Notes: generated by a model from the letters alone, not told the origin. A stretch of DNA of 64,000 bases from Bosea sp. (in: a-proteobacteria) (GCF_017308015.1 NZ_JAFKFW010000017.1:16783-80782); one strand, 5' to 3'; counted from the stretch's first letter, positions 1-49,959 are shown. Program-made: numbers and translations.

Positions 1-29
1 GGCGTCTCCTTGCTGGGAGGCATCGCCTG

Positions 30-362
30 ATGAGCACGGGACTGACCAAGCGCCAGCGTGCTCTGCTGGATTTCGTGAACGAGTTCACCGCCCGTGAAGG
101 GCAGCCGCCATCCTATGAGCAGATGGCGGCCGGTGTCGGCCTGCGCTCCAAGTCGGGCGCGTTCCGGCTGATGGCCAAGCTGGAAGAGCGTGGCGCTATC
201 CGACGCCTGCCGAACCGCGCTCGCTCCATCGAAGTAATCGACCAGTCGAGCCTCCCTCGCGAGCTTGAGGAACGCATCGCCACCTATTGCCGGAACATCG
301 GCATCCCTCGCTCGATTTTTGACCAGCGCGCCGCTGAATGCCTCCTGCGGGGTGCGGCATGA
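30..362 (+). CDS. LexA-like winged-helix DNA-binding protein lacking the peptidase domain
   Basis: LTKRQ..LLDF, PPSYEQM, LRSKSG..RL..LEERG.IRRLPNRARSIEV match the LexA N-terminal domain; only 110 aa. Confidence 0.85.
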   Translation: MSTGLTKRQRALLDFVNEFTAREGQPPSYEQMAAGVGLRSKSGAFRLMAKLEERGAIRRLPNRARSIEVIDQSSLPRELEERIATYCRNIGIPRSIFDQRAAECLLRGAA

Positions 363-961
363 CCATCACCGAGCCAGAAAATCGCCGTGCCCGCACATCC
401 CATATCTGGGAGACCGAGGAGCATCAACATTACGTTGAGCCGCCGTGGGTGAGCCGCCGCCTATTCGAGGTCGAGCGGTTCGAAGGTGGGATTTGCGATC
501 CCTGCTGCGGTCTCGGCAACATCCTCGATAGCGCCGTGCTCGCTGGCCATCCTGTCTCTGGCTTCGACATCGTCGATCGAGGCGCCGGCTTCATGACGGC
601 GCAACGCGACTTCTTCTCGATCAGCGATGCGAAGCCCAACATCGTCAGCAACCCACCATTCGACGGTATCGAGCGGTTCGCGCTCCATGCGTTGTCACTG
701 GCGGACCGTAAGGTCGCGATGATCTGCCCAACCCGGCGCCTCAACGCGGCTGGAAAGTGGCTGAAGGGCACGCCACTCTATCGCATCTGGTACATCACGC
801 CCCGGCCATCGATGCCGCCTGGGCAGGAATACATCCGCCTCTGGGAGCAGGGGAAGGAAGCCTCTGGCGGCACTGTCGATTTCTGCTGGCTCGTTTGGCT
901 CAATGGCTACGAGGGCGAGCCCGTCGCCCGCTGGCTTCACCGCGACGGAGACGCCGCGTGA
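359..961 (+). CDS. Orphan amino (N6-A/N4-C) DNA methyltransferase-like protein
   Basis: DPCCGLG motif I-like and IVSNPPF motif IV; ATGA overlap with the upstream gene sets the start at 359. Confidence 0.75.
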   Translation: MTITEPENRRARTSHIWETEEHQHYVEPPWVSRRLFEVERFEGGICDPCCGLGNILDSAVLAGHPVSGFDIVDRGAGFMTAQRDFFSISDAKPNIVSNPPFDGIERFALHALSLADRKVAMICPTRRLNAAGKWLKGTPLYRIWYITPRPSMPPGQEYIRLWEQGKEASGGTVDFCWLVWLNGYEGEPVARWLHRDGDAA

Positions 962-1224
962 GCCTCCTTCCCGACATCGTCGACAGCGGCGCGCTCGGCT
1001 GGACGCTGGTTATTTCCACTCGGTCCAACGGTACCGGCGAAGCGAAGATCACATGGGACGGGCAGGGGCAGCTCAATCCCGACTTCTACGCAGCCCGGAC
1101 GACCCCTGCAGCAGCGCTTGAATCCGTGCTGATGCGGGTCGAGCGCAACGGCGGCGTATCACCGCTCGACGTGCCGGTGCTCGTCGGCGTCCTGGTTGGA
1201 CACTTCCAGGCGAGGACGCGATGA
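958..1224 (+). CDS. Hypothetical phage protein
   Basis: GTGA and ATGA overlaps with both neighbours (translational coupling). Confidence 0.55.
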   Translation: MSLLPDIVDSGALGWTLVISTRSNGTGEAKITWDGQGQLNPDFYAARTTPAAALESVLMRVERNGGVSPLDVPVLVGVLVGHFQARTR

Positions 1225-2645
1225 ACGCAATGGCGCCCGATCAATTCACGGACTGGTTCCGCGAGATCTCCGAAACGGAGATGGCTCTCGTCGCCGGCAT
1301 GCTGATGGCGCCGCCTGCGATCAGCTCGGTGATGCTGACGGGCCTGACCGAGGAGCACTTCGGCGACATGTCTGCGGCGGCGCTCTATCGCCGCACCATG
1401 GACATCGTCGCGCGTGGTGGTGTCATCGACTTCCGGACCGTGATCCAGGGCGGCGCATCCGTCCTGATGGGCGAGGCTCAGCCGATCAATGAACTGATGG
1501 CCCGCATGGCTGCCATCGCTGCACCGGCCGGCTCGCTCGCTGACTATGCCAAGATCATCCGTAGCGCCTGGGTTGTCCGTCGCATCTTCGATGCTGCCGA
1601 CGGCGCGCGAAGCACGATCGCCACTTCAGATGTCACCGCACTCGCTCGCGGGCTGATCGACACCGTAGATGCTCTGCGCGACGCAGCGATCGATCAGCGC
1701 CGTTCCAGCCGGGGCAGCCTCGGGGACATCGCAGAGCAGGCCGGCCGTGAGGCCGAGGCCATGATGCGAGGCGAGCTGGAGCGGCCACCATCCTGCGGCA
1801 TCCCAGACCTCGATAAGCATCTGCCGATGCGTGGTCTGGCACCGGGCGCGCTCTATGTGCTCGCCGGGCGGACCGGGCAGGGCAAGACGCTTATGGGCTC
1901 CGCTCTCGCTTCGAAGATGAGCAGCCAAGGCGAAGGCACGCAGTATTATTCGCTGGAGGTGCCATCGAAGGAGATCGCCGCCCGCGTCATCTGCGAGCGT
2001 CTCGGCTCCAAGGGCCCGACCTACGGCCAGGTTCTCTCGGGGCATACGACAGAGAACGAGCTCGAGGCCTATCTCTGGGCTGCCGGGCAGGCGAAGAAGG
2101 AGCCACTTCGTCTCGACGACACGCCATCGCTCAGCATGGCCGACATCCTCGTCGAATCCCGCAAGTTCGCTGATCGCCTCGACAAGCAAGGCAAGCGCCT
2201 GAGGCTCGTCCTGATCGACCACGCCATGCTTGTGAAGCCATCCAGCCGTTACCAGGGCAATAAGGTCAACGAGCTCGGCGAGATAGCCAACTCCGCCAAG
2301 GTGATGGCGAAGACGCTGGAATGCACCGTCATGCTGTGCTGTCAGCTAGGCCGCGACGTCGAAAAGCGTGAGGACAAGCGCCCTCAGCTTTCAGACCTCC
2401 GCGCTTCCGGTGAGATCGAGGAAGCCGCCGACGCAGTCCTTATGCTCTATCGGGAGCACTATTACGCCACCCGCACCGAAGCCTTTCGCCGCGGCGATCA
2501 GGGCGCGCAGGACGAAGCCGAGGCCGTCCGCAACAACCTTGAAATCGGCATTGAGAAGAGCCGGCAGGGCCAAACCGGTCGCGTCAACCTCTGGTGCGAT
2601 CCCGGCCGGTCGATCGTCTGTGGCATCCATGGAGATGGCAGGTGA
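1221..2645 (+). CDS. dnaB: DnaB-like replicative helicase
   Basis: Walker A GRTGQGKT, YSLE, LIDH, CQLGR, DLRASGEIEEAAD, K.RQG.TG motifs. Confidence 0.95.
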   Translation: MNAMAPDQFTDWFREISETEMALVAGMLMAPPAISSVMLTGLTEEHFGDMSAAALYRRTMDIVARGGVIDFRTVIQGGASVLMGEAQPINELMARMAAIAAPAGSLADYAKIIRSAWVVRRIFDAADGARSTIATSDVTALARGLIDTVDALRDAAIDQRRSSRGSLGDIAEQAGREAEAMMRGELERPPSCGIPDLDKHLPMRGLAPGALYVLAGRTGQGKTLMGSALASKMSSQGEGTQYYSLEVPSKEIAARVICERLGSKGPTYGQVLSGHTTENELEAYLWAAGQAKKEPLRLDDTPSLSMADILVESRKFADRLDKQGKRLRLVLIDHAMLVKPSSRYQGNKVNELGEIANSAKVMAKTLECTVMLCCQLGRDVEKREDKRPQLSDLRASGEIEEAADAVLMLYREHYYATRTEAFRRGDQGAQDEAEAVRNNLEIGIEKSRQGQTGRVNLWCDPGRSIVCGIHGDGR

Positions 2646-5887: not shown

Positions 5888-6769
5888 TTAAATCCCGAGA
5901 TATCCTCGGAGCAGACCTGCGACTGCGTCAACGCTGGCTTTCCCGGCAGTATTCGCGGCGCCCTTTATCCATTCGCCCAGCGCCGTGCCAAACTGGCCTT
6001 TCTTGATGTCCCCCTGATCCTTGGCGAGCGCGAGGGGGAGGGCGGCAATTTGCTCTGCATGAACCCCGGCCTCGCCGAGAGCCTTGGTTAGGCCGTCGAA
6101 ATCGCCCGCGACCAAACCAGAGTTGTTGGCCTGCGATAGGTCGCCGCCCACGTTCGAGTTGATGACGTTTTGCCCGCCGTAGATGTAAGTGATCACTTGC
6201 TTCTGTACCTCTTCGGCGCCGACCTTTTCTAAGGGGTCGTCCGAGTCTCCAACCTGTTCTTGAAGTTCCAAGGCCAGCCTGAGAATGCGGTTCCTGACTG
6301 TGTCACAGATGCCGATCACCCTGCCAACGGGCAGCGAACGCCATGCTCGGTTTAAGCCGTAGCCGGCGATAATTTTCTCCGCATACATTGCAACCAAGTC
6401 TGCAGGCCAAGGGCTAGAAAGCTCGTCGCTCCCAGACTTGGCCAACGACTCGATCTCAGCGATCGGCTCCGGCATGCGAATGTACCGGATCAAATCTCGG
6501 TGTCGCTCAGATAAAAGCCCAAGCGGAATGGGTTGGTTGCGAATCTGCGCTCCGAGTGGCCCGACCATCAATCCGAAGGAGTTGGCGCCGAATATCCGAT
6601 ACTCCGGCAACGCGTCGTCGGAACTATAGCCGTCGAGTTCGGCTCCGCACCACTCCTTCAGCGTGCCGTTTTTCAGTCTTGAAGCAAGGACCAGGCATTT
6701 CCGCAGCAACACGGGCAACCCGATGTCACTAGCCGTCGCTCCCTCGATTATTTCATTGAGCAGTTTCAC
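5888..6769 (-). CDS. AbiTii-domain protein (putative abortive infection/defence moron)
   Basis: LL.EII..A......L..LLRKC.VLA.RL....L..W...EL.GY...LP.YR N-terminus; antisense to phage operons; visibly lower GC. Confidence 0.8.
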   Translation of the reverse strand: MKLLNEIIEGATASDIGLPVLLRKCLVLASRLKNGTLKEWCGAELDGYSSDDALPEYRIFGANSFGLMVGPLGAQIRNQPIPLGLLSERHRDLIRYIRMPEPIAEIESLAKSGSDELSSPWPADLVAMYAEKIIAGYGLNRAWRSLPVGRVIGICDTVRNRILRLALELQEQVGDSDDPLEKVGAEEVQKQVITYIYGGQNVINSNVGGDLSQANNSGLVAGDFDGLTKALGEAGVHAEQIAALPLALAKDQGDIKKGQFGTALGEWIKGAANTAGKASVDAVAGLLRGYLGI

Positions 6770-7094
6770 GGTTCGCCCCGGGCGATGCGCATCTACCAGC
6801 TATCGACACGCAGTTGACGAACGGCGGCAAGCCCTGGTGCCTGCTTTTCCCCAAATGTTCGCTTGAGCTGGCCAAATGCTACCTCTCTATGATCTTGTAG
6901 CAATGCAAGATTTATCCCCCCGATAGGGTGGTTGTCGGACTGCCATTTTGCGGGCATGCATTGGTCATCGTCGCGAAACGTGTCGGTGACGACACCCGCC
7001 CGGCCAGCGCCAAGCGCGAACGGCCCATGCGACGGTGCAAATAAGAGCGACGAGCGGTCAAGATTTGCCAGTTCTGGATGAGACGCCGCCAGCG

Positions 7095-7126
7095 AGCCCG
7101 GCCCCAGCGGTCGGGCTTTGTCGTTT
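7095..7126 (+). terminator. Rho-independent terminator candidate before the late region
   Basis: 9-bp stem AGCCCGGCC/GGTCGGGCT followed by TTGTCGTTT. Confidence 0.55.
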
Positions 7127-7187
7127 CAGGCCACAATGAGCGGTCGCCGCGATAGGGTAGCGCCTCTGATGTGATCGTTGTCAGTTG

Positions 7188-7382
7188 TCAGCTCACCTCG
7201 GAGTCCTGAACCGCGACGATCTCCGCAACGATCTGCTGAAGCCGACGGGTCGCCTCTTTAAGAGCTGTTCCCTCGTCCGCAGGGTCTTTCTCCGATGGGC
7301 CCAAGGCTTTGAGCGCGTCGCGGGACACCTTATGAGCCGCGCCAAACAATTTGCGGAGATTGTCGTTACGAAGCCGTTCCAT
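7188..7382 (-). CDS. Small hypothetical protein (64 aa)
   Basis: C-terminal part of ORF 7188..7916 from MERLRNDN; helical character. Confidence 0.45.
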   Translation of the reverse strand: MERLRNDNLRKLFGAAHKVSRDALKALGPSEKDPADEGTALKEATRRLQQIVAEIVAVQDSEVS

Positions 7383-7545
7383 GGCCGAGAGAATACGCGC
7401 GGTGTATGGATGCGGCCCTGTCTTATGACATCGCCCACCACATTCGCGATGGCGAGCGTTCCCTGCAGGAAGAACGCTCTCCCTGCTGCCCGCAGGGAAC
7501 AACGGTCGGCGGTCCCCGTTGCGGTTGCATTCGGAGGAATGCGCC

Positions 7546-7791
7546 ATGGCAAAAGGACAACCTGAATCCCTCGCTACCTTCGCCGCGACCGCCAGGAACG
7601 ACGGAAAGAAGCCCCAGGACATCGGGCTTGAGGCGACCCCTGAAACGAAGGGCCTCCCGACTGATCCAAAGGAGAAAGCCGACGCGGCGACAAAGGTGCT
7701 GCGAGAAGGCGTTCTCAAAAAGGACCAGGGCGCCGAAAAAGCAGTGGACGCGCTACCGGACCGCACGCGGGATGCCAAACCTCGCAGATAA
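7546..7791 (+). CDS. Small hydrophilic hypothetical protein
   Basis: GGAGG RBS, ATG at 7546. Confidence 0.65.
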   Translation: MAKGQPESLATFAATARNDGKKPQDIGLEATPETKGLPTDPKEKADAATKVLREGVLKKDQGAEKAVDALPDRTRDAKPRR

Positions 7792-7979
7792 GGTCTCTCG
7801 GTCGCCTTTTGAGGTTCGCGCGGCAGACGGACAAGGCTAAGGCCCGTGAGAGAGTAGACCAAGCGGCGGGAGCGCGCCCTTCGGGCTCCGCAACAAACCG
7901 CCGCCGTCAAAATCAAACCGGGGTGGGAAGCGAGGGGTCTAGTCCGTGCGAATTATTTCTCCCGCTTCGGAGCGTTGAC

Positions 7980-41499: not shown

Positions 41500-41522
41500 G
41501 GGTTGACTCCTCTGAGTGGTTT

Positions 41523-41537
41523 GTTCTCATAATGTTC
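41523..41537. promoter_or_regulatory. Alphaproteobacterial LexA (SOS) box GTTC-N7-GTTC
   Basis: GTTC TCATAAT GTTC is an exact consensus, in the ~60-bp gap between divergent genes. Confidence 0.8.
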
Positions 41538-41558
41538 TCATATCCGAGGACGCAAGCC

Positions 41559-41786
41559 ATGTCACCCGAACCAGCCGATCAGTATGTCGAAGACACGTCG
41601 CTGGACGCGGAAATCTCAGGAATCGTCGCGACGCTCTTGGAGGAGCACGGCTCGGAGCACGCCGCACTCAGGGCGCTGGCGCATGACTTTATCGTGCTGC
41701 TGGCCGACGCTGATCGGTCAGTCTCGCGCGGCTATCTGCGTGGTTTGTTTTCGCAGGGAGCGCGGCCGGCCCGCGAGCCAGAATGA
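41559..41786 (+). CDS. Small hypothetical protein
   Basis: GAGG RBS, ATG 41559; first gene of the rightward unit. Confidence 0.7.
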   Translation: MSPEPADQYVEDTSLDAEISGIVATLLEEHGSEHAALRALAHDFIVLLADADRSVSRGYLRGLFSQGARPAREPE

Positions 41787-41789
41787 ACC

Positions 41790-42167
41790 ATGGGGCCGCC
41801 GGACGAAGAAACACCTCTGCGGGATTTCCCATGGGTCGTTGTACGGCTTCGGTGCACGTGGTGCAGACGCGGCGGGAGCTACCGCGTGGCGGATATCGCC
41901 GCGAAGCACGGCAGCCGGATTACGATCGGCATGATCGTCGTTGCCTTCATGGAAGGCTGCGAGTGGCGGCCCTGGAACCCCGCCCGAAAGCCTCAAAAAT
42001 ACGGAATGAGATGCGGCGGCTACTGCCCGGACCTGCGCAGGCCCGACCCGCCCGATCTGCCGCCGTCGATGATCGGGCTCAACCTGATCGAGGGAGGCAA
42101 GGATGAGCAGCTACCAGCAGAGCCAAGCCGGCAGCCCCGACGTCGTCGTGTCGGTTCTTCGGATTGA
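41790..42167 (+). CDS. Cys-rich putative Zn-binding protein
   Basis: CTWC plus later C, C and C; FPW motif. Confidence 0.7.
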   Translation: MGPPDEETPLRDFPWVVVRLRCTWCRRGGSYRVADIAAKHGSRITIGMIVVAFMEGCEWRPWNPARKPQKYGMRCGGYCPDLRRPDPPDLPPSMIGLNLIEGGKDEQLPAEPSRQPRRRRVGSSD

Positions 42168-42468
42168 CCGGGAGACCATGGAGCGCCTGCCGCTGACTGA
42201 CGAGCAGGCAGCCGTTGCGACTGCCGCTGTAGGTGCTGTGTTCGCGGCTGCAGGCGTCACACCGAACCTCGTCGCCACCGCTGAATGGGAGGTCGAGGGT
42301 TGGGACATCGCCGGTTTCCCGGAGCCGGGGCCGGGAGAATGGTTCGACATCCTGATGGTCAAGGGCGAGGCGCACGATGCCGCAGATCAGGCATTGGCTG
42401 CGAAGTGGCCGGAACTTCAAGGCCAATGGACCGAGCTTCAGCTATACGCCCCCGCCGAACCCGCATAG
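42103..42468 (+). CDS. Hypothetical protein
   Basis: GGAGG RBS; lies between the Zn protein and SRAP. Confidence 0.6.
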   Translation: MSSYQQSQAGSPDVVVSVLRIDRETMERLPLTDEQAAVATAAVGAVFAAAGVTPNLVATAEWEVEGWDIAGFPEPGPGEWFDILMVKGEAHDAADQALAAKWPELQGQWTELQLYAPAEPA

Positions 42469-42477
42469 GCTCAGGCC

Positions 42478-43209
42478 ATGTGCAATCTCTACAGCCACAC
42501 CCGGAACGTCGAGGCGATGCGCAAGCTCTTCGCCAAGTTCAACGATGCCGGCGTGAACGTGCCGCCTCTGCCGGGGATCTTCCCGGACTACGCCGCGCCG
42601 ATCGTCAGGAACGACGAAGGCGGGCCGCGGCTGGCGATGACGCGCTGGGGCATGCCGTCATCCAAGAAGGCGCTGCTCGACGCCGCCACGAAGCGCGCTG
42701 ATAAGCTGCGCGCGAAGGACAAGGATGTCGACTTCGACCACCTTCTCCGCATGGAGCCCGATGGCGGCACCACGAACGTCCGCAATACCTCGAGCTCGCA
42801 CTGGAAGCGTTGGCTCGGAGTCGAAAGCCGATGCCTGGTGCCCTTCAACAGCTTCAGCGAGTTCGACTGGAGCACCAAGCAAGACGTCTGGTTTGCATTC
42901 GGGGAGGAACGGCCTACAGCCTTCTTCGCCGGTATCTGGGCGCGCCAGTGGACGTCCGTCCGCAAGGTGAAGACCGGCGAGGAGACGATCGACCTCTACG
43001 CCTTCCTGACGACCGATCCGAATGCCGAGGTTGGCGCCATCCACCCGAAGGCTATGCCGGTAATCCTGACGACGCCGGAAGAGTGCGAGACCTGGATGAC
43101 GGCGCCATGGGAGCAGGCGAGGGCACTTCAACGCCCTCTGCCGGATGGCTCGCTCGATATCGTCGCCCGCGGTGGGAAGAAGGATGGCGACATTACTGAA
43201 CGACCTTGA
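42478..43209 (+). CDS. SRAP / HMCES-like abasic-site processing protein
   Basis: Starts MC; RWG.P, TNVRN, RCLVP...F.E, FAGIW, IH.KAMPVIL motifs. Confidence 0.95.
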   Translation: MCNLYSHTRNVEAMRKLFAKFNDAGVNVPPLPGIFPDYAAPIVRNDEGGPRLAMTRWGMPSSKKALLDAATKRADKLRAKDKDVDFDHLLRMEPDGGTTNVRNTSSSHWKRWLGVESRCLVPFNSFSEFDWSTKQDVWFAFGEERPTAFFAGIWARQWTSVRKVKTGEETIDLYAFLTTDPNAEVGAIHPKAMPVILTTPEECETWMTAPWEQARALQRPLPDGSLDIVARGGKKDGDITERP

Positions 43210-49826: not shown

Positions 49827-49876
49827 CCGGCCTGTCACGCCGGAGGTCGCGGGTTCGAGCCCCGTCGCCCGCGCCA
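49827..49876 (+). other. attR core: 3' 50 nt of tRNA-Asp(GTC)
   Basis: Anticodon arm CCGGC-CTGTCAC-GCCGG, T-arm GGTTCGAGC, CCA end; acceptor 5' strand and D-arm absent. Confidence 0.9.
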
Positions 49877-49959
49877 TGTATCTCTCTGAAGATACTCGTC
49901 TTTTCTTCCTCTCGAAAATCTCGGAACGTCTCACTTCGGAATCGCCAGGCCGGCAATTT

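Follow-up and report, generated by a model that had tools for sequence, protein, structure and literature searches.

Phage proteins that retain only the head of LexA are already described and catalogued, and the protein analysed here, mini-LexA, is no surprise in kind. Its only characterised analogue is gp6 of GIL01, a tectivirus of Bacillus thuringiensis. GIL01 carries LexA boxes and encodes gp6, a truncated LexA homologue, in its early operon; rather than the LexA box, gp6 recognises a palindrome of its own (GaCACA..TGTGaC) that overlaps the −35 element of the late promoter P3, and it activates P3 (PMC6182141). Shigella phage SfV encodes a related design, orf42 (L009:3265-3591), which is composed of a LexA_DNA_bind head (E = 4.8e-19) and a tail of ~43 aa (108 aa in total), lies in the gene order dam, orf42, rusA and is annotated 'transcriptional repressor'; our literature search found no functional test of it. 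In Edwardsiella phage EPP-1, rusA lies two genes upstream of a LexA-head gene.

Here we analyse mini-LexA, encoded by a 61.7-kb prophage integrated at tRNA-Asp in a Bosea sp. genome (4.9 Mb, 66% GC). The window, that is, the whole stretch of DNA analysed, comprises 64,000 nt (C25:16783-80782), and its features are collected in Table 1. Like GIL01 gp6, mini-LexA is a phage-encoded, peptidase-less LexA head from an early operon, in a phage that carries LexA boxes. However, gp6 is a 66-aa protein without a tail, whereas mini-LexA is a 110-aa protein with one, and we detect no kinship beyond the shared domain (no alignment in BLASTP; 30% over the head in MAFFT). SfV orf42 shares with mini-LexA the head-plus-tail plan and the location in an early operon beside a DNA methylase and a Holliday-junction resolvase, but the two proteins are only 33% identical over 55 residues, their tails are not alignable, and SfV belongs with another host clade and another box type (CTGT palindrome). 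Non-cleavable LexA mutants (S119A, G85D; PDB 1jhh, 1jhf) offer a laboratory model of the RecA-proof operator binding proposed below; these mutants are full-length, dimerise normally through the C-terminal domain and are made constitutively by the host, whereas mini-LexA is phage-made. Caulobacter RogA ('LexA-like') was considered as a relative and set aside as different, being 213 aa long with a dead S24 domain. In our literature search, no paper dealt with the fusion of a LexA head to a ribbon-helix-helix (RHH) module or with the function of the mini-LexA family; what is new here is the architecture of LexA head plus probable RHH-type tail in tailed alphaproteobacterial prophages.

Table 1. 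Features of the mini-LexA locus and its prophage in window coordinates (C25 coordinates in brackets where given)
Feature	Position	Strand	Evidence
RuvC-like resolvase, 3' end (gene C25:16249-16812)	1..30	+	phrog_159, E 1.5e-6
Ribosome-binding site GGGAGG	14..19	+	10 nt 5' of mini-LexA ATG; direct sequence reading
mini-LexA gene	30..362, stop codon included	+	ORF list, PF01726 match, dN/dS
Winged helix-turn-helix, LexA-type, mini-LexA residues 3-70	36..239	+	Pfam, AF2, Foldseek, alignment
C-terminal tail, residues 71-110; probable ribbon-helix-helix dimerisation module	240..359	+	AF2, tail profile, relatives' Pfam
DNA methyltransferase-like gene	359..961	+	phrog_799, E 8.2e-39
DnaB-like replicative helicase, same operon	1221..2645	+	PF03796, E 7.3e-55
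Host-type SOS box	41519..41541; core GTTCTCATAATGTTC at 41523-41537	+	31.1 bits, host SOS matrix
Cassette behind the 41523 box: 75-aa gene (41559-41786), one or two small ORFs, SRAP gene (42478-43209)	41559..43209	+	ORFs, Pfam
Right att repeat, copy of the tRNA-Asp 3' part at C25:4893-4943	49827..49877 (C25:66609-66659)	+	exact ~51-bp repeat

A LexA head joined to a two-helix tail

The ORF list of the window gives a mini-LexA product of 110 aa. The earlier note had described a LexA DNA-binding domain at residues ~5-70 with the motifs SKSG..RL and RRLPNRAR, had reported the peptidase domain missing and had proposed an HMM search with LexA_DNA_bind, and all of this is borne out. Specifically, Pfam LexA_DNA_bind (PF01726) matches residues 3-65 above its curated cut-off (E = 3.7e-15; 55.9 bits against 23.7), and both motifs are present, with the recognition helix formed by residues 41-53 and the wing (RRLPNRAR) by residues 56-69. 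The NCBIfam lexA model TIGR00498 is matched only over positions 2-72 of 203, with 56 bits against a cut-off of 110.95. A Pfam scan gives no Peptidase_S24 (PF00717) match in mini-LexA and the protein ends at residue 110, indicating that the self-cleaving peptidase half is missing. Since mini-LexA lacks both the S24 domain and the Ala-Gly cleavage site, RecA-stimulated self-cleavage cannot inactivate it. Among PHROGs, mini-LexA matches phrog_3502 (E = 2.9e-16; unknown function), phrog_362 (E = 7.1e-8; 'transcriptional repressor') and phrog_24920 (E = 3e-8).

The AF2 model of mini-LexA has a mean pLDDT of 86.4. Residues 7-69 form three helices and a two-strand wing, which together constitute a winged helix-turn-helix, and are followed by a short linker and the tail helices. 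In a Foldseek search of the PDB with this model, the nine best matches are all LexA structures, the top match being the LexA-DNA complex 3jso (rmsd 1.5 Å over 67 columns), and the structures of the non-cleavable LexA mutants are also among the matches. A tblastn search of the prophage's own genome locates host LexA at C21:108377, with 55% identity to mini-LexA residues 2-70. Mini-LexA thus shares with the alphaproteobacterial LexA of its host the winged helix-turn-helix fold, a near-identical wing and four of five DNA-contact residues, but it is phage-encoded in a lytic operon, lacks the S24 peptidase/dimerisation domain, the cleavage site and the long linker, carries a Phe in place of a His in the recognition helix, and would dimerise, if at all, through an unrelated RHH-like tail.

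The tail comprises a strand-like stretch, DQSSL, and two helices predicted by AF2 at residues 77-90 and 94-109; block pLDDT values are 95, 93 and 85 over residues 81-110, which make up the bulk of both helices. The AF2 monomer, a prediction for a single chain, shows no strand in the tail. A profile of 30 family tails, searched against the PDB, matches MazE6 (E = 6.9e-5), Rv0298 (0.017), Arc (0.043) and a CopG-family protein (0.054); the TAL-effector and designed-repeat proteins that top this search were disregarded as summed weak repeat matches. For relative P0035, the tail exceeds the TacA1 and HicB cut-offs of Pfam; for relative P0024, it gives weak RHH_4 and RHH_1 matches below the Pfam cut-off. 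The mini-LexA tail aligns in register with these two tails and has a G-x-x-R-S turn between the helices. The replacement tail is therefore most likely an RHH dimerisation module, as these sequence comparisons suggest: the earlier guess of an RHH or dimerisation module gains support at the family level, from the 30-tail profile and the relatives' Pfam matches, but not from the tail of mini-LexA itself, which gives no Pfam match when scanned alone.

The tail family is likened by profile to Arc, CopG, MazE6 and the DNA-binding domains of the TacA and HicB antitoxins. In contrast to these RHH proteins, the module of mini-LexA sits behind a LexA head and its DQSSL strand lacks a basic residue. We therefore read the tail as a dimeriser and not as a second DNA reader; it probably only dimerises. 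Overall, mini-LexA is a LexA head without the peptidase half, its recognition helix and wing closely resembling those of host LexA, joined directly to a ~40-aa two-helix tail of probable RHH type.

Operon position, relatives and module exchange

An S24 repressor gene (cI-type, 257 aa, Peptidase_S24) runs leftward at C25:13179-13952, upstream of the mini-LexA operon. The rightward early operon contains, in order, small genes, the RuvC-like resolvase, mini-LexA, the DNA methylase, the DnaB helicase and a DnaD-like loader. The resolvase stop codon (TGA, 28-30) and the mini-LexA ATG overlap by one base (TGATG), and the methylase ATG overlaps the mini-LexA stop (ATGA). A simple scan found no promoter just 5' of mini-LexA, and on the plus strand of the early operon a terminator scan yielded nothing convincing, its one candidate being a weak 5-pair hairpin at 995. 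From this arrangement we infer that mini-LexA is produced alongside the early genes of the lytic programme but not during lysogeny.

GCTA-N4-TAGC-like repeats (for example GAGCTAAAAATAGCCC) occur in the cI-cro gap (L001:13953-14027; L001 positions equal those on C25) and at the leftward promoter (L001:11095-11140), and probably serve the S24-type prophage repressor as its operators. A noncoding block at window positions 6893-7060 contains ~150 nt that are ~90% conserved with the Bosea ASV33 prophage, with flanks that are not conserved. The block opens with the palindrome ATCTTG-N8-CAAGAT and is followed, in the window, by a 10-pair terminator-like hairpin (7094-7118), upstream of the late genes; Rfam gives no match over 6700-7900. 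The block could represent a late promoter with a leader and an antitermination terminator, a small RNA or a tiny minus-strand gene.

The closest homologue of mini-LexA, in Bosea sp. ASV33, is 94% identical. Five related prophage loci keep the position of the gene, with a nuclease-type gene upstream and the one-base overlap. The upstream gene is RuvC-like (phrog_159) in the window; in L002-L005 its place is taken by a gene for an uncharacterised protein of similar size, in L006 by one for a 5'-3' exonuclease. The genes downstream of mini-LexA in the relatives are of methylase, SNF2 or DUF4942 type, succeeded by replication genes, namely DnaB in four related loci and a DEAD-box helicase with a primase in L003. 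Comparison with the ASV33 orthologue gives a dN/dS of 0.058 at a dS of 0.72 (0.008 for the head alone); the gene is therefore maintained, under strong purifying selection.

Across the related prophages we distinguish two head alleles, AF and IH, which are ~60% identical, and two tail types, A and B. The AF head occurs with tail A in the window and ASV33 and with tail B in L003, and the IH head occurs with tail A in L002, L005 and L006. These combinations indicate that head and tail recombine as separate modules between related prophages.

The family extends well beyond these loci. Searching 1.84 billion representative proteins with a profile yields 28,390 matches at E ≤ 0.001, the majority of which we assume to be true LexA; the majority of the best 150 of the 28,390 are 105-125 aa long and match the whole profile. 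Among the short proteins taken from this search, 57 have tails of at least 35 aa that are distinct from the LexA linker, and the tail of mini-LexA is likewise specific and conserved. In IMG/VR, 62 viral contigs encode a mini-LexA relative, mostly a short protein, with additions that vary among RHH-like tails, a 'DLIAELxRR' helix and an N-terminal zinc ribbon. Among GenBank phages we found no close relative and no match covering at least 80% of the query; the examples there are all distant and bear the annotation 'repressor' or 'LexA DNA-binding domain protein'. A scan of genome contigs with the family profile was discarded, as all 80 of its 80 loci are true lexA genes or frameshifted copies; the true lexA loci confirm SKSGIHRL as the helix of the clade.

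DNA-contact residues, SOS boxes and candidate operators

E. coli LexA contacts DNA through Ser39, Asn41, Ala42, Glu44 and Glu45 (PMC3091678). We transferred these positions, in E. coli LexA numbering, through the alignment with SfV orf42, which is gapless with an offset of one, so that the corresponding residues of mini-LexA are S40, S42, G43, F45 and R46. Host LexA has S-S-G-H-R at these positions, of which mini-LexA matches four of five; Phe45 occupies the E. coli Glu44 position, where the host has His. Consistent with the earlier note, which had pointed to AF in place of IH, the alignment reads SKSGAFRL in the window and SKSGIHRL in host LexA. The head of SfV orf42 similarly mimics the LexA of its own host clade, keeping S39, N41, A42 and E45, and the Glu44 position is again hydrophobic (Val in orf42, Phe in mini-LexA): two phage lineages that are unrelated have changed in parallel to a hydrophobic residue at a single contact position.

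Of 28 IMG/VR relatives, 21 retain the S-S-G-H-R set, as do 56 of the 116 short relatives taken from databases. For 57 diverse members, mean identity to host LexA is 0.70 over the turn and recognition helix and 0.76 over the wing, against 0.42-0.49 over helices 1 and 2. The identity of helix and wing and the kept contact residues speak for continued reading of GTTC-type half-sites by the family in general. The subclade of mini-LexA is a minority that has Phe at the Glu44 position, which may relax or change specificity.

The SOS motif of the host is GTTC-N7-GTTC with an AT-rich spacer and precedes lexA, recA, ssb, two imuA-like genes, comM and others, in agreement with the published alphaproteobacterial motif (PMC8565304). 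We built a matrix from 16 host boxes, including flanks and spacer. Sites of at least 20 bits number 19 in the whole 4.9-Mb genome; three of these are not training sites, and two of the three (31.1 and 21.7 bits) lie inside the prophage. The stronger of the two is the box at 41523, which the earlier note had placed in the same prophage and which indeed lies within it, the right att repeat being at 49827-49877. This box consists of TGTTCTCATA in tandem with an 11-bp period (10-of-11 repeat) and lies 22 nt 5' of the 75-aa gene. The SRAP (SOS response associated peptidase) gene of the cassette matches PF02586 with E = 1.3e-18; the 75-aa gene and the small genes have no family match in a Pfam scan. 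We regard 41559-43209 as a putative LexA-controlled accessory cassette inside the prophage.

The second box (C25:11210-11232) lies 5.6 kb left of the window, beside the immunity region. Its core, GTTCTGCTTGCGTTC, equals the host lexA box except for one spacer base, and it is preceded by a promoter-like TCGACT-17-TCAAAT. Downstream of it, between PL and cI, are a conserved 79-aa Cys-rich protein, probably a zinc ribbon as judged from its sequence, with 12 close homologues but no annotation of its own, and then a 109-aa gene; this cassette may be an SOS-triggered switch component, for example an antirepressor-like protein. The half-sites of the second box are invariant in the three relatives that cover the region, with scores of 23.1 to 31.5 bits. 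Between the SOS-box cassette and cI lies a leftward gene for a 408-aa P-loop-like protein (L001:11854-13080, minus strand; phrog_6841, unknown function), whose slot is held by a DUF3800 gene in relatives and is a variable accessory one, perhaps for defence genes.

Beyond these loci, 14 of 50 distinct high-GC viral contigs with mini-LexA have a box of at least 18 bits within 10 kb, an association that is only suggestive since there is no control set of phages lacking mini-LexA. Plain counts of GTTC-N7-GTTC in viral loci were rejected as a measure: they show no enrichment over shuffled 4-mers, and only the matrix with flanks and spacer is informative.

The geometry of the protein is less easily matched to such boxes. 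The linker from wing to tail is at most about 7 residues in mini-LexA, as compared with ~50 residues from wing to cleavage region in host LexA. With a direct-repeat box and a ~7-residue linker, a two-fold symmetric RHH dimer may not reach the tandem half-sites; a symmetric short-linker dimer would fit an inverted repeat better than a direct one. Furthermore, the second box is the same in phages with AF and IH heads, so that head and box do not co-vary, and the variety of head alleles looks like variation in specificity.

Motif searches of the prophage and related loci found no other conserved or repeated candidate operator, and no inverted GTTC/GAAC pair is conserved between loci. A perfect 8-bp inverted repeat with inverted GTTC/GAAC half-sites, GAGCGTTC-N10-GAACGCTC, occurs at window positions 7452-7477, ~70 bp before a small ORF at 7546; it was rejected as an operator, the surrounding stretch being without a match in the closest relative genome, Bosea ASV33. 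CTGAC-N7-GTCAG was also rejected: this conserved motif has a single copy in each phage, and nothing ties it to mini-LexA.

Competing readings of function

The reading that we tentatively prefer, at somewhat less than an even chance, is that mini-LexA acts as a RecA-proof dimer that would occupy GTTC-type LexA boxes once the lytic operon is on. Mini-LexA would be made only after loss of the prophage repressor, or on infection, would dimerise through its tail and would bind GTTC-type half-sites, that is, LexA boxes. Candidate targets are the 41523 box before the SRAP cassette, the conserved box of the immunity region and the host SOS operators. Because it is uncleavable, mini-LexA would restore repression at LexA-box promoters while host LexA is being destroyed, and the outcome would be that the SOS-triggered cassettes of the phage are off and the host SOS programme is damped during lytic growth. 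The data are consistent with the earlier suggestion of a damage-insensitive repressor of GTTC-N7-GTTC sites that would shut either the host SOS regulon or the cassette of the phage. Domain identity, likeness to the host, contact residues, the dimerisation module, the boxes, operon position and selection favour a LexA mimic; Phe45, head variation without box variation, the short linker and the gp6 precedent count against it, and the argument from boxes is weakened by the fact that LexA boxes are common in temperate phages anyway.

Much of what counts against mimicry would suit a regulator of the GIL01 gp6 type, in which a captured LexA head has been retuned to a phage-specific operator, switches later genes and ignores LexA boxes, a reading that we consider possible but on balance doubtful. 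Gp6 itself works in this way, with a site other than the LexA box and as an activator of late promoter P3 (PMC6182141). The Phe at a contact position, head alleles that vary between related phages as immunity specificities do and a short-linker symmetric dimer that would suit an inverted repeat all fit such a regulator. However, the kinship of mini-LexA to gp6 is at domain level only, and the five contact residues of the host persist in the relatives at the frequencies given above. No repeated or conserved candidate operator emerged: the GTTC/GAAC inverted pairs are not conserved, the 7452-7477 palindrome lies in a stretch unmatched in Bosea ASV33, each phage has a single CTGAC-N7-GTCAG, and the operators between cI and cro belong to the GCTA-N4-TAGC type. 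Moreover, in the late region a conserved leader is followed by a terminator-like hairpin, and other regulator candidates end the early operon, so a gp6-like activator is not obviously needed.

The tight packing of the operon raises the quite improbable alternative that mini-LexA is no transcription factor but serves the replication, recombination and methylation module as a DNA-binding accessory. It could, for instance, tag or arrange phage DNA for the resolvase, methylase or helicase, or act as a C-protein-like controller of the methylase. At all six loci, mini-LexA is wedged between the nuclease and the methylase/SNF2/DnaB block with overlapping start and stop; SfV has like neighbours in another order (dam, orf42, rusA), and EPP-1 has rusA two genes upstream. 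The neighbour families nevertheless differ by locus (N6_N4_Mtase, DUF4942, phrog_799, with or without SNF2), so the link to the module may be positional; both LexA-type heads and RHH modules typically belong to transcription regulators, and the prophage has its own DnaD/DUF1376-type initiator after DnaB. That mini-LexA is instead a functionless, decaying fragment of a captured lexA gene is extremely improbable. Similar short ORFs do arise in draft assemblies and metagenome bins where a true lexA gene is frameshifted, but decay is contradicted by the dN/dS of mini-LexA, and the specific conserved tail in place of a LexA linker, the ribosome site with coupled translation and the large family with its many full-length members of 105-125 aa also stand against it.

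A wider claim, which we judge somewhat unlikely, is that alphaproteobacterial temperate phages, and by a parallel route enterobacterial ones, carry RecA-proof LexA mimics, made early in lytic growth, that re-occupy SOS operators during the destruction of host LexA. Such mimics would combine the LexA reading head of the host clade with an interchangeable dimerising tail. If true, this 'anti-SOS' switch would close the phage's own damage-triggered cassettes, silence host SOS functions and block LexA-gated induction of rival prophages or defence genes. Should mini-LexA bind LexA boxes, it would be a natural, phage-made counterpart of the laboratory non-cleavable LexA mutants, and the virus would turn off the host DNA-damage response after using the same response as its wake-up signal. 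Should it bind a phage site instead, it would extend the gp6 precedent to tailed phages of another phylum and would show that LexA heads and dimerising tails shuffle as modules. As the family is large, with scores of 105-125-aa clusters in the profile search, one binding result would annotate many genes.

Two minor observations concern the SOS boxes and their promoters. In the IMG/VR contigs L097 (8324-10225) and L091 (9027-10297), the mini-LexA gene has an SOS box 1-1.6 kb upstream, and in L097 the box seems to head the rightward run of ORFs that contains this gene; in such contigs mini-LexA may itself be under host LexA control, like GIL01 gp6. CTGAC-N7-GTCAG (L001:11147-11163; L002 and L004 have aligned copies) and TCGACTC, which is invariant in the second-box promoter, both contain GANTC, the CcrM-type methylation site, a hint that methylation may affect this promoter.
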